Source: a virus (Duplodnaviria > Heunggongvirae > Uroviricota > Caudoviricetes). From it: DNA of 4,265 nucleotides. The stretch is taken from the IMG/VR virus record IMGVR_UViG_2671180846_000015; one strand, 5' to 3'. Below, in pieces: positions 1-4,265 of this stretch (positions are counted from its first letter, which is position 1; each line of letters opens with the position of its first letter). The notes beneath the pieces were generated by a model that made no database searches, was not told where the DNA came from, and saw nothing but the letters and a program-made list of their open reading frames with translations. The position numbers were made by a program, and so were the translations under genes.

Positions 1-143
1 TTCAGCAGCACGCTTTTTAATCCATCCACCGGACCTTCAATCGGCCCTTCGCTGATGGCATCAATCACACTCAGCAGCTGCGTGGATTTCAGGTTATCTT
101 TCGCTTCGCGCGGGGTATGCCCCTTACTGCTGCCTTTACCCAT
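1..143 (-). CDS. J: Tail tip host-specificity protein J (central tail fibre), N-terminal 47 codons only; the gene continues beyond the window start
   Basis: Reverse complement of 1..143 reads from ATG (143..141) as MGKGSSKGHTPREAKDNLKSTQLLSVIDAISEGPIEGPVDGLKSVLL with no stop before the window edge. This matches the lambda gpJ N-terminus as I recall it, and it sits 60 nt downstream of the I stop as in lambda. It is absent from the ORF track because it runs off the window. Confidence 0.85.
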   Translation of the reverse strand, partial: MGKGSSKGHTPREAKDNLKSTQLLSVIDAISEGPIEGPVDGLKSVLL

Positions 144-151
144 TCCTCACG

Positions 152-155
152 CTCC
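152..155 (-). promoter_or_regulatory. Candidate Shine-Dalgarno (GGAG) for J, 8-nt spacer to the ATG at 143
   Basis: Minus-strand reading of 160..141 is TTTATGGAGCGTGAGGAATG. The GGAG is 8 nt upstream of the J ATG; a second GAGG lies only 1 nt from the ATG and is too close to act as SD. Confidence 0.4.
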
Positions 156-165
156 ATAAACGACA

Positions 166-185
166 AAACCGCCCGCAGGCGGTTT
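166..185 (-). terminator. Candidate stem-loop in the I-J intergenic spacer (weak intrinsic-terminator-like or mRNA structural element)
   Basis: Perfect 8-bp inverted repeat aaaccgcc (166-173) / ggcggttt (178-185) with a 4-nt loop. On the minus-strand transcript it reads AAACCGCC-UGCG-GGCGGUUU followed by UGUCGUUUAU (U-rich but interrupted). It lies between the I stop (204) and the J start (143). Confidence 0.3.
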
Positions 186-203
186 CACATAAAACATTTT
201 GCA

Positions 204-875
204 TCAGCGACCAATCACCACAACCTGACCACCGTCCCCTTCGTCTGCCGTGCTGATCTCCTGAGAAACCACGCGAGACCCCACGCGCATTTCCCCGTAC
301 AGAACAGGCAGAACATTGCCCTGGGCAACCATGTTATCCAGTGAGGAGAAATAGGTGTTCTGCTTACCGTTATCCGTTGTCTGTGTACGGGGAGTTCTGG
401 CTTTCGGTGCCAGCATCTGCGCCACACCACCGAGCACCATACTGGCACCGAGAGAAAACAGGATGCCGGTCATACCACCGGCCCCAATGGCTGCCCCCCA
501 TGCTGCAAGGGTGGCTCCGGCGGTAAAGAATGATCCGGCAATGGCTGCAGCCCCCAGGACAATCTGGAATACGCCACCTGACTTGGCCCCGGCGACTCTG
601 GGAACAATATGAATCACAGCGCCATCAGGCAGAGTCTCATGTAACTGCGCCGTTAACCCGGACGCGCTGACGTCCCGCCCGGCAATCCGTACCTGATACC
701 AGCCGTCGCTCAGTTTCTGACGAAACGCCGGGAGCTGTGTGGCCAGTGCGCGGATGGCTTCAGCCCCCGTTTTCACACGAAGGTCGATGCGGCGGCCAAA
801 TCGTTGCAAATCCCCGTAAAGGCAGATGCGTGCCATTCCCGGTGACGCCAGAGGGAGTGTGTGCGTCGCTGCCAT
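204..875 (-). CDS. I: Tail tip assembly protein I (223 aa): N-terminal ubiquitin-like beta-grasp domain ending in Gly-Gly, then a Gly/Ala-rich hydrophobic C-terminal region
   Basis: Complete ORF with ATG at 875..873 and TGA at 206..204. Its 223-aa length and sequence (MAATHTLPLASPGMARICLYGDLQRF...) match lambda gpI as I recall it. It overlaps the 3' end of K by 103 nt in another frame, as in lambda. A purine-rich GGGAGAGG lies 11 nt upstream of the ATG. Confidence 0.95.
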   Translation of the reverse strand: MAATHTLPLASPGMARICLYGDLQRFGRRIDLRVKTGAEAIRALATQLPAFRQKLSDGWYQVRIAGRDVSASGLTAQLHETLPDGAVIHIVPRVAGAKSGGVFQIVLGAAAIAGSFFTAGATLAAWGAAIGAGGMTGILFSLGASMVLGGVAQMLAPKARTPRTQTTDNGKQNTYFSSLDNMVAQGNVLPVLYGEMRVGSRVVSQEISTADEGDGGQVVVIGR

Positions 876-1586
876 TTGTCGGTATACCTCTCCCGTTTAC
901 TCAGTTGTTCAGGAATATGGTGCAGCAGCTCGCCGTCACCACAGTAAATAGCGGCGTGATTCGGCACCGATGAACCAAAACAGCACAGCAGCACATCGCC
1001 CGGCTGCGCCGCTGACAACGGCACCTGATACAGCCCTGTGGCCTCCAGATTATCCAGATAGAGATTCTGACCGTTACGCCACCAGTCATCCTCACGCACA
1101 AAATCCGGCATCTCAATCTCCGCCAGATGATAAGCATCCCGGAACAGTGTGTAACAGTCCGTCACACCGTGCTCAAAGCGCCGCCCGGTGAGATGCGGCA
1201 CACAGCGGAACTTATGAATCTCACCCCGGCAGACCAGCCACCACGGCAAATCACTCTGCACCTGCAGCCGCCGGTCGGCCTCACTCAGCCAGGGCAGACC
1301 ACCGGGGTGGCTGTGGACCAGCGCCACAATCTCCCCCTGCATTTCTGCCTGCAGCCAGTCTTCCGGCGACATACGGAAATACGCCTCCGGCTCACCGGAG
1401 ATATTCACGCAGGGGAAATATCTTTCCCCCTCCGGCGTGCTTACCACGAAGCCGCACGACTCCGCTGGCGCACATCGCCGGGCGTGCGCCAGAATCGCTG
1501 ATTCNNNNNNNNNNNNNNNNNNNNNNNNNNNNNNNNNNNNNNNNNNNNNNNNNNTGCGCCAGAATCGCTGATTCTGTCTGTGTCAT
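773..1586 (-). CDS. K: Tail tip assembly protein K (JAB/MPN metalloprotease-like N-terminal domain + NlpC/P60 C40-peptidase-like C-terminal domain), interrupted in this assembly by an N gap plus duplicated flank
   Basis: The ATG at 1586..1584 opens MTQTESAILA, then the reading frame is broken by 50 N plus a 20-bp duplicated flank (70 nt, frameshifting). Deleting 1505..1574 gives one continuous ORF of about 247 aa: MTQTESAILAHARRCAPAESCGFVVSTPEGERYFPCVNISGEPEAYFRMSPEDWLQAEMQGEIVALVHSHPGGLPWLSEAD...DCYTLF...PNHAAIYCGDGELLHH...ASTFV, stop at 775..773. The intact part matches lambda gpK. The internal ATG at 1372 gives exactly 199 aa, the lambda K length I recall. JAMM motif HSHPx6Sx2D is at about 1274..1315 and the NlpC/P60-like Cys is at about 1154..1156. 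Confidence 0.85.
1485..1574. repeat. Perfect 20-bp direct duplication (tgcgccagaatcgctgattc) on both sides of the N gap; interpreted as an unmerged contig-end overlap, not a biological repeat
   Basis: 1485..1504 and 1555..1574 are identical. Collapsing one copy and the Ns restores the K reading frame and the lambda-like protein sequence across the join. Confidence 0.9.
1505..1554. other. Assembly gap (run of 50 N)
   Basis: Exactly 50 consecutive N, the conventional length for an unknown-size scaffold gap. It sits inside the K reading frame. Confidence 0.95.
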
Positions 1587-1591
1587 GGGAT

Positions 1592-2290
1592 TTACTGCGA
1601 AAGTTTGTTAATGGAAAGGAAGCCGCCAAAGTTGCCGACGTTATTGTGGAACTTACAACCGCTCAGGCATTTGCTGCATTTATCCTTCGTGATATCGGAC
1701 GTTGGCTGGTCATATTCATCCGCGACAGCCGGACCGCTATAACCGCACTCGTCACCGCGATAGGTCCAGGTGCAGGTGTTGGCCAGCATGATACGTCCCG
1801 GAAAAACAGCGCCNTCCGTTTCCGTCGGCGTGGACAGTACAAANGAGGCACTCACCGCGCTCAGTTCGCTGCACTGCTCAATGCGCCAGCGGCTGATCAC
1901 CTCCTGCTCCGGATCGGCGTAACTGTTTCCGTTGACGAAGTTCACCGCATCCAGAAAACGGGCGTAAACCTTACGCCTGACCACCGTTCCGCCGACCAGA
2001 CTCTGCATATCTTCCACCATACCGGTGACCATGCCGTGCAGGTTAGAAACCGTCAGTGTCGGACGGGCAGCACTGCCCTTGCCGTTCAGTTCAAATCCCG
2101 TCCCCTGAATGGGNTANNCCTGATACTGNCGCCCCTGCCAGNTNACCGGCTCACCTTTTTCGTTCTGCTCATTACAGAAAAAATAACGTTCNCCACCGAC
2201 CTCTGTCAGNTCGATTTCCCAGAGCACCACGCTGGCCGACTGCTCCGCACGGGTGCATTCATTCAGTGTTTCCTGCCGGATATCCTGCAT
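1592..2290 (-). CDS. L: Tail tip assembly protein L (232 aa) with a C-terminal cysteine cluster; contains 10 ambiguous base calls
   Basis: ORF with ATG at 2290..2288 (overlapping the M stop as TGATG) and TAA at 1594..1592. Its 232-aa length and sequence (MQDIRQETLNECTRAEQSASVVLWEI...CTWTYRGDECGY...CSKCLSGCKF...) match lambda gpL. Single N bases at 1814, 1844, 2114, 2117, 2118, 2129, 2142, 2144, 2192 and 2210 give X residues. AGGTGG lies about 7 nt upstream of the ATG. Confidence 0.93.
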   Translation of the reverse strand: MQDIRQETLNECTRAEQSASVVLWEIXLTEVGXERYFFCNEQNEKGEPXXWQGXQYQXXPIQGTGFELNGKGSAARPTLTVSNLHGMVTGMVEDMQSLVGGTVVRRKVYARFLDAVNFVNGNSYADPEQEVISRWRIEQCSELSAVSAXFVLSTPTETXGAVFPGRIMLANTCTWTYRGDECGYSGPAVADEYDQPTSDITKDKCSKCLSGCKFHNNVGNFGGFLSINKLSQ

Positions 2291-2619
2291 CAGTTCACCA
2301 CCTGTTTAAACTCTGCGCTGAACTCAACACGCAACATACTGACCTGCGACGACCATTTTGCGCAGGTCACCTTTATCTGCCTGTAACCATAAGGCGGCGT
2401 CCACAGAAAGGCCTTCCAGCCCCCGTGCTCAGCCAGAAACGACTCCAGCGCCGTGGCCTCCTCACGGGAGACAGACAGCGTCACGCTGTACGTTTTCAGG
2501 TCAGCGTTCAGCCCGGCAGGCACACGCTGGGAATAGCCATCACCAAAGCGCACCTCCCTGACGGAAGGGGCCGATGTCACATCCATACCGGGTTTCACTT
2601 TCCAGCGGAAGGTTTTCAT
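2290..2619 (-). CDS. M: Tail tip assembly protein M (109 aa)
   Basis: ORF with ATG at 2619..2617 overlapping the H stop (ATGA) and TGA at 2292..2290. Its 109-aa length and sequence (MKTFRWKVKPGMDV...RVEFSAEFKQVVN) match lambda gpM as I recall it. Confidence 0.95.
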   Translation of the reverse strand: MKTFRWKVKPGMDVTSAPSVREVRFGDGYSQRVPAGLNADLKTYSVTLSVSREEATALESFLAEHGGWKAFLWTPPYGYRQIKVTCAKWSSQVSMLRVEFSAEFKQVVN

Positions 2620-4265
2620 CGTCCACCTCCGGAGAACAGGCCACCATCACGCATCTGTGTCTGAATTTCATCACGGGCACCCTTGCGGGCCATGTCATAC
2701 ACCGCCTTCAGAGCAGCCGGACCTATCTGCCCGTTCGTGCCGTCGTTGTTAATCACCACATGGTTATTCTGCTCAAACGTCCCGGACGCCTGCGACCGGC
2801 TGTCTGCCATGCTGCCCGGTGTACCGACATAACCGCCGGTGGCATAGCCGCGCATCAGCCGGTAAAGATTCCCCACGCCAATCCGGCTGGTTGCCTCCTT
2901 CGTGAAGACAAACTCACCACGGTGAACAATCCCCGCTGGCTCATATTTGCCGCCGGTTCCCGTAAATCCTCCGGTTGCAAAATGGAATTTCGCCGCAGCG
3001 GCCTGAATGGCTGTACCGCCTGACGCGGATGCGCCGCCACCAACAGCCCCGCCAATGGCGCTGCCGATACTCCCGACAATCCCCACCATTGCCTGCTTAA
3101 GCAGAATTTCTGTCATCATGGACAGCACGGAACGGGTGAAGCTGCGCCAGTTCTGCTCACTGCCGGTCAGCATCGCGGCCATATTCTGTGCAATACCATC
3201 AAAGGTCTGCGTGGCTGCACTTTTTACCTGCGACATACTGTCCGTGGCGCTCTCTTCCCACTCACTCCAGCCGGACTTCAGGCCTGCCATCCAGCTCCCG
3301 CGAAGCTGGTCTTCAGCCGCCCAGGTCTTTTTCTGCTCTGACATGACGTTATTCAGCGCCAGCGGATTATCGCCATACTGTTCCTTCAGGCGCTGTTCCG
3401 TGGCTTCCCGTTCTGCCTGCCGGTCAGTCAGCCCCCGGCTTTTCGCATCAATGGCGGCCCGTTTTGCCCGTTGCTGCTGTGCGAATTTATCCGCCTGCTG
3501 CGCCAGCGCGTTCAGGCGCTCCTGATACGTAACCTTGTCGCCAAGTGCAGCCAGCTGGCGTTTGTACTCCAGCGTCTCATCTTTATGCGCCAGCAGGGAT
3601 TTCTCCTGTGCGGACAGCTGGCGACGTTGTGCCGCCTCCTCCAGTACCGCGAACTGACTTTCTGCCTTCCACAAATCCCGGCGCTGCTGGCTGATTTTCT
3701 CATTCGCTCCGGCATGCTTCTCCAGCGTCCGGAGTTCTGCCTGAAGCGTCAGCAGGGCAGCATGAGCACTGTCTTCCTGACGATCGCCCGCAGACACCTT
3801 CACGCCGGACTGTTTCGGCTTTTTCAGCGTCGCTTCATAATCCTTTTTCGCCGCCGCCATCAGCGTGTTGTAATCCGCCTGCAGGATTTTCCCGTCTTTC
3901 AGTGCCTTGTTCAGTTCTTCCTGACGGGCGGTATATTTCTCCAGCGGCGTCTGCAGCCGTTTGTAAGCCTTCTGCGCCTCTTCGGTATATTTCAGCCGTG
4001 ACGCTTCGGTATCGCTCTGCTGCTGCGCATTTTTGTCCTGTTGAGTCTGCTGCTCAGCCTTCTTTCGGGCGGCTTCAAGCGCAAGACGGGCCTTTTCACG
4101 ATCATCCCAGTAACGCGCCCGCGCTTCATCGTTAACAAAATAATCATCCTTGCGCAGATTCCAGATGTCGTCTGCTTTCTTAAACGCAGCCTCTGCCTTA
4201 ATCAGCATCTCCTGCGCGGTATCAGGACGACCAATATCCAGCACCGCATCCCACATGGATTTGAA
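2616..4265 (-). CDS. H: Tail tape measure protein H, C-terminal about 549 codons (5' end beyond the window); coiled-coil-rich middle region, Gly-rich hydrophobic segment and C-terminal domain
   Basis: The ORF is open from the window edge (4265) to TGA at 2618..2616. The first in-window residues FKSMWDAVLDIGRPDTAQEM... through to ...MRDGGLFSGGGR match the C-terminal two thirds of lambda gpH (853 aa) as I recall it. The track's ATG at 4256 is internal, not the true start. A Gly-rich stretch GIVGSIGSAIGGAVGGGASASGG is encoded at about 3083..3015. Confidence 0.95.
   Translation of the reverse strand, partial: FKSMWDAVLDIGRPDTAQEMLIKAEAAFKKADDIWNLRKDDYFVNDEARARYWDDREKARLALEAARKKAEQQTQQDKNAQQQSDTEASRLKYTEEAQKAYKRLQTPLEKYTARQEELNKALKDGKILQADYNTLMAAAKKDYEATLKKPKQSGVKVSAGDRQEDSAHAALLTLQAELRTLEKHAGANEKISQQRRDLWKAESQFAVLEEAAQRRQLSAQEKSLLAHKDETLEYKRQLAALGDKVTYQERLNALAQQADKFAQQQRAKRAAIDAKSRGLTDRQAEREATEQRLKEQYGDNPLALNNVMSEQKKTWAAEDQLRGSWMAGLKSGWSEWEESATDSMSQVKSAATQTFDGIAQNMAAMLTGSEQNWRSFTRSVLSMMTEILLKQAMVGIVGSIGSAIGGAVGGGASASGGTAIQAAAAKFHFATGGFTGTGGKYEPAGIVHRGEFVFTKEATSRIGVGNLYRLMRGYATGGYVGTPGSMADSRSQASGTFEQNNHVVINNDGTNGQIGPAALKAVYDMARKGARDEIQTQMRDGGLFSGGGR
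2626..2630 (-). promoter_or_regulatory. Shine-Dalgarno (GGAGG) for M, 6-nt spacer, embedded in the 3' end of H
   Basis: Minus-strand reading upstream of the M ATG is CTCCGGAGGTGGACG-ATG. Confidence 0.5.

Follow-up and report, generated by a model that had tools for sequence, protein, structure and literature searches.

Negative gaps are a documented defect of genome scaffolds, with Sanger-validated examples that range from −1 to −43 bp (PMC3504050, PBJelly). For de Bruijn assemblies, it has been reported that contigs end k−1 bases past a position at which unresolved repeat copies disagree, and that false variants appear at "position k" (PMC5368935). The closest described gene system is that of phage lambda, in which K is classically annotated as a 199-aa protein that starts at Met49 of a longer frame, equivalent to position 1372 on the minus strand of the DNA analyzed here. 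This DNA, referred to below as the window, is the whole 4,265-nt stretch from IMG/VR virus record IMGVR_UViG_2671180846_000015, and its K gene holds a run of Ns bounded by two copies of one 20-nt word. Is K broken in this virus, or is the break a product of how the sequence was assembled? Comparison of the window with finished prophages argues strongly that the 50-N gap and its doubled 20-mer are an assembly artefact and that K is intact in the organism, a conclusion in which we place high confidence.

Results

The genes of the window lie on the minus strand in the order H-M-L-K-I-J, which corresponds to a lambda-like prophage tail-tip module (Table 1). Gene assignments rest on the open reading frame (ORF) list and on how matching loci are annotated in a lambda record and in complete E. 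coli genomes. The 672-nt ORF of gene I and the 3′ end of K have ~100 nt in common, and the PGAP version of I in E. coli genomes is shorter, at 573 nt.

Table 1 Features of the window, in order of position.
Feature	Position	Strand	Remarks
Gene J, 5′ end (tip attachment protein)	1–143	−	ATG at 143; continues beyond the window
Gene I (tail assembly protein)	204–875	−	672-nt ORF, 223 aa as in lambda; PGAP model 204–776
Gene K (tail tip assembly protein; "C40 family peptidase" in PGAP)	773–1586	−	744 nt, 247 aa without 1505–1574
Allele-discriminating site	1484		His11 of K, third codon position, synonymous (g in the window, a in alternative K alleles); 21st base counted back from the left contig end
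20-mer, copy 1 (final 20 bases of the left contig)	1485–1504		tgcgccagaatcgctgattc
N run, apparent placeholder scaffold gap	1505–1554		Exactly 50 Ns; merged form aligns gap-free to finished genomes
20-mer, copy 2 (opening 20 bases of the right contig)	1555–1574		tgcgccagaatcgctgattc; very probably the same genomic bases as 1485–1504, written twice
Allele-discriminating site	1575		Thr4 of K, third codon position, synonymous (t in the window, a in the alternative K allele); 21st base of the right contig
Gene L (minor tail protein L)	1592–2290	−	Contains 10 isolated Ns at 1814–2210
Gene M (tail protein)	2290–2619	−	
Gene H, 3′ part (tape measure protein)	2616–4265	−	Leaves the window at its end

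The original prediction, made from the window alone, held that a perfect 20-mer stands directly before and directly after the 50-N run, and this arrangement was found as described: the word abuts the Ns on both sides (1485–1504 and 1555–1574), with a 20/20 match and zero bases intervening. On the minus strand, the first copy spans K codons 5–10 and reaches two bases into codon 11. No other exact direct repeat of at least 14 nt occurs in the window, the word is absent elsewhere on either strand, and the one other repeat of at least 12 nt is a single chance 12-mer. The doubled pattern arose in none of 200 dinucleotide-preserving shuffles of the window, and the chance identity for one given pair of 20-mers is ~4^-20. 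The segment from 1505 to 1574, comprising the Ns and the second copy, measures 70 nt; as 70 mod 3 equals 1, its presence shifts the reading frame. Its removal leaves a merged window of 4,195 nt with the junction ...ccgggcg-tgcgccagaatcgctgattc-tgtctgtgtcat..., in which the right flank begins tgtctg. Removal also restores the frame of K exactly as had been claimed, such that a 247-aa minus-strand ORF reads MTQTESAILAHARRCAPAESCGFVVSTPEG...

The merged 4,195-nt sequence forms a single ungapped block against three finished prophages, one in strain 2013C-3342 (L001) and two in strain 2003-3014 (L002 and L003). This collinearity, with no indel at the join, agrees with the proposal that two contig ends overlapping by 20 bp were scaffolded rather than merged. 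It also bears out the expectation of a negative gap, since the gap-free alignment of the merged form to finished genomes gives a length of −20 nt, the overlap itself being deduced from relatives. Positions 1–2306 of the window, Ns excepted, are base-for-base identical to L002 and to a locus of strain 2013C-3513 (L277). In every complete genome listed, those of Shiga-toxin-producing E. coli included, an 800-nt query composed of 1105–1504 joined to 1575–1974 aligns 800:800 in one piece and mismatches solely at its two Ns. At least 80% of this query is covered by a locus in 4321 of 5426 complete E. coli genomes. The sequence across the join is lambda-like, as had been predicted, with 99.1% identity to phage lambda over the merged 800 nt; for the left flank, identity is 97.5% to lambda and reaches 100% to prophages in many Shiga-toxin-producing E. 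coli. No 100% match to the right contig was found among complete genomes, the best being 99.3%.

Two further observations concern these relatives. After position 2306, at which the identity to L002 and L277 ends, the window shows 33 differences from L002 in 2307–2913 and matches L001 and L003 there. This switch in similarity at ~2307 could represent mosaicism of the kind natural to lambdoid phages, here at the L/M boundary, or else a jump of the assembly path from one co-resident prophage to another. Separately, the record MW057783.1, deposited as "Campylobacter phage CJLB-4" (48,361 bp), is as close to the window as lambda itself over the L–K region (99.1% over 800 nt), which suggests that it is lambda DNA, such as a control or a contaminant, rather than a Campylobacter phage.

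The protein encoded by merged K matches that of L002, L003 and L277 (RefSeq WP_000194778.1) at every residue, in keeping with the claim that K is intact in the organism, and K is annotated as 744 nt and as "C40 family peptidase" in 5 of 5 finished loci. Two domains are resolved by profile searches. A Prok-JAB domain (PF14464) occupies residues 3–105 and matches profile positions 3–113 of 114 with 52.6 bits against a cut-off of 25, and an NlpC/P60 domain (PF00877) occupies residues 111–224 with 46.7 bits against a cut-off of 23. Merged K thus places Prok-JAB at its N-terminus and NlpC/P60 at its C-terminus and lies between L and I, as do members of the lambda gpK family, and the order H-M-L-K-I-J agrees with that of the annotated lambda and prophage records. 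The JAMM/MPN+ metal-binding motif is defined as E...HxHx7Sx2D, and merged K carries it as ...PAESCGF... together with HSHPGGLPWLSEAD. The JAMM glutamate, in PAESCGF, lies upstream of the classical Met49 start, as does the beginning of the Prok-JAB domain.

The position of the gap relative to K depends on which start of K is accepted. Among ~270 loci, K codons 2–48 have 6, 4 and 25 variable sites at codon positions 1, 2 and 3, respectively, and no stop codon was found in codons 2–48 in 269 loci. Because the Pfam match, this codon-position variation and the lack of stops all point to a coding 5′ extension, the 247-aa PGAP model is taken as the better and real one on sequence grounds, and the artefact would therefore fall in codons 5–11 of the real gene. 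The claim of an artificial frameshift in K holds for this model only; under the classical 199-aa K, the gap would fall outside the gene, 133 nt upstream of the start, and no frameshift would result. A current lambda record still gives K as 199 aa from Met49, the regions concerned being 1372–1586 of the window and 1169–1912 of L275. The related warning that any miscalled K here would be an artefact is well founded, but the likelier miscall is not a frameshift. In the window as written, the ORF list contains a 224-aa GTG-started remnant (773–1447) and a 64-aa ORF that crosses the Ns, so that automated annotation would probably yield a 5′-truncated K.

Both edges of the overlap coincide with sites that discriminate between paralogues, an observation that goes beyond the original prediction. 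In many lambdoid contigs, the 20-mer is preceded by another base, followed by one, or both. The 20-mer is the maximal word common to the K allele of the window and the commonest alternative, ...ccgggca-20-mer-agtctgtgtcataaaccggg... Among 274 loci, a sample biased by collection, the bases that flank the 20-mer are G..T in 123 (the allele of the window), A..A in 113, A..T in 31 and G..A in 6. Three of these alleles, G..T, A..A and A..T, all occur at 100% in each of five complete genomes, 2013C-3342, O26 RM10386, O103 RM8385, 2014C-3057 and 97-3250. In strain 2013C-3342, they lie at 2.119 Mb (G..T), 1.005 Mb (A..A) and 0.601 Mb (A..T), and in strain 2013C-3513, the G..T and A..A alleles are found together. 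The occurrence of edges on exactly these two positions offers an explanation for both the position of the break and the 20-nt length of the overlap. The probability that both edges fall on variable sites by chance is estimated as ~0.02–0.12, which is unlikely but not negligible.

That all four flank combinations occur among lambdoid loci (L004–L262, a biased sample) is a separate observation on the evolution of K, and it marks the first 11 codons of K as a point of recombination among lambdoid alleles.

The ten isolated Ns in L stand at 1814, 1844, 2114, 2117–2118, 2129, 2142, 2144, 2192 and 2210. Based on about 240–260 lambdoid L alleles, 8 of the 10 coincide with sites at which the minor allele reaches a frequency of 5% or more, compared with 252 of 726 sites in the background (hypergeometric P = 0.004), and rare variants are present at the other two. 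A clean collapse of two copies was considered as their source and was rejected, as no single alternative L allele that differs at exactly the ten N sites was found among 229 loci; the nearest alleles in these loci show either 0–1 or at least 12 non-N differences from the window. The isolated Ns are most likely ambiguous consensus calls made from reads of several paralogous prophages. Their link to paralogue variation lends support to assembly of the region under repeat interference.

Discussion

What would cause two contigs that end in the same 20 bases to be separated by Ns? We consider the following series of events to be the most plausible. In a draft assembly of E. coli type, two contigs would have been joined inside the H-M-L-K-I-J tail module of a lambda-like prophage. 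The genome most likely contains several lambdoid prophages whose K alleles have the 20-mer in common and differ at the next base on each side. Each contig would have been extended through the common word and halted at the first base at which the copies disagree, such that the same 20 genomic bases would end both facing contigs, and the scaffolder would then have written a fixed 50-N placeholder instead of merging them. In a de Bruijn graph with k = 21, the common word would be a single branching node and the neighboring contigs would overlap by k−1 = 20 bases; alternatively, the contigs may have been extended greedily until a conflicting base was reached. That the source genome itself carries the alternative allele is inferred from the co-residence of these alleles in related complete genomes, and the assembler and its k are likewise deduced, an overlap of 20 being consistent with k = 21 but not proof of it. 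Among assemblers, ABySS sets scaffold gaps to at least 50, and Ray takes k = 21 by default.

This reading of the break as a repeat node, which we consider probable, has a difficulty. The hypothesis that the 20-mer is the sole word of at least 20 nt in common with a co-resident allele, under which k = 21 would fully account for the break, is rejected: the co-resident A..A allele of strain 2013C-3513 (L276) has ~20 other exact words of at least 20 nt in common with the window, none of which is accompanied by a contig break. Breaks would be expected at every unresolved common word of at least k−1 bases, and the L276 words do not show them. A plain k = 21 graph should break at these words too, and k = 21 therefore does not explain a break at this site only. 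The single break could reflect read threading, bubble popping or a tangle of three alleles at this node. Alternatively to the resolution of the repeat elsewhere by the assembler, the match between the edges and the SNPs may be partly luck.

The latter possibility leads to a different cause for the same artefact, namely that local coverage was low, that a 20-nt overlap of ends was below the minimum of an overlap-layout procedure and that the SNPs at the edges are coincidental. Over a length of at least 1504 nt, the left contig shows no break despite the other common words; the neighboring L region (1575–2300) varies at ~35% of sites among lambdoid alleles, which makes a coincidence possible; and the isolated Ns in L speak for a modest consensus quality. 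However, thin coverage does not predict that both edges would coincide precisely with the two positions that distinguish the allele of the window from its commonest alternative, nor does it account for isolated Ns that fall preferentially on paralogue-variable sites, which point to repeat interference instead, and the alternative alleles do co-reside in related genomes. Low coverage is accordingly viewed as an unlikely cause, and a break at a repeat node is retained as the probable one.

A second possibility is that the join itself is wrong, with the left (K-I-J) and right (K start-L-M-H) contigs derived from different prophages of one genome, in which case merged K would be chimeric while each K would be intact. 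Such an error is conceivable in genomes of this kind, as relatives carry up to 13–14 copies of these genes, in strains 2003-3014 and 6883 the left flank is best matched in one prophage and the right flank in another, the flanks differ in their best matches to complete genomes (100% and 99.3%), and the window changes from L002-like to L001-like at ~2307. This change nevertheless lies ~730 nt from the join, and the exact haplotype across the join is contiguous in finished genomes, namely over 1–2306 in L002 and L277. Moreover, g precedes the 20-mer in 129 loci, and the base that follows the word is t, as in the right contig, in 123 of these and a in 6. We therefore regard a wrong join as very improbable.

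Could the Ns conceal real DNA? A single copy of the 20-mer is present in every related locus fetched (274 of 274), and a 28-mer composed of a single copy plus 4 nt on each side is present exactly in at least 120 IMG/VR contigs. Two copies 0–60 nt apart gave 0 matches in IMG/VR (2.9 M viral contigs) and 0 in 185,579 species genomes, and copies 30–60 nt apart, the only spacing range scanned there, gave 0 in metagenome contigs, these counts being subject to the proviso that, in a local test, an N in the pattern matched an N in the target and that the collection scans may behave otherwise. No run of five or more Ns was found in 277 fetched loci, that is, the same gap artefact was not seen in them, and no element termini were found between the direct repeat and the Ns, which adjoin the 20-mer directly on both sides. 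Target duplications of E. coli insertion sequences measure ~2–14 bp. A mobile element with an unusually long 20-bp target-site duplication, or a genuine duplication with a spacer, either of which would leave K truly disrupted, is suggested by direct repeats around an unassembled stretch whose contents the Ns hide, but both are rejected as extremely improbable on the basis of the scans, the single-copy state of the 20-mer in relatives, a repeat longer than such insertions produce, the lack of any non-repeat base before the Ns where insertion-broken contigs normally run into element ends, and the absence of any reason for an insertion to place both edges on paralogue SNPs.

The flagged structure is a known kind of scaffolding artefact and neither a biological feature nor a source of new biology, and its importance is one of data hygiene only. 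For the record, 1505–1574 should be deleted and K annotated as intact at 247 aa, and not as frameshifted, truncated or a pseudogene. The ten isolated Ns in L should not be counted as variation. Further joins of the same kind are probably present in the same assembly, and a quick diagnostic is available for such cases: an N run bounded flush by an identical short word, with edges that are variable between paralogues, indicates a contig break at a repeat node rather than missing sequence.

The locus can be compared with three described systems. With respect to the "position k" bias of de Bruijn assemblies (PMC5368935), the variants here stand at base 21 from both facing contig ends, as that bias predicts; the difference is that other common words of at least 20 nt occur here without breaks, such that the agreement with k = 21 is suggestive and not a demonstration. 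In relation to negative scaffold gaps (PMC3504050; ARBitR preprint 10.1101/2020.04.29.065847), the likeness consists of an N run of fixed length with identical sequence on each side, in which trimming of the overlap recovers the true sequence, and the reported range (PMC3504050) brackets the −20 bp proposed here. Nothing substantial sets the present case apart from these examples, other than that the overlap is perfect and its cause appears traceable to a specific repeat node. Finally, merged K resembles phage lambda gpK in its two domains and in the L-K-I-J gene order, and 241 of its 247 residues are identical to the translation of the long frame of lambda. It differs in that the lambda annotation is classically 199 aa, whereas the gene interrupted by the gap is the 247-aa form.
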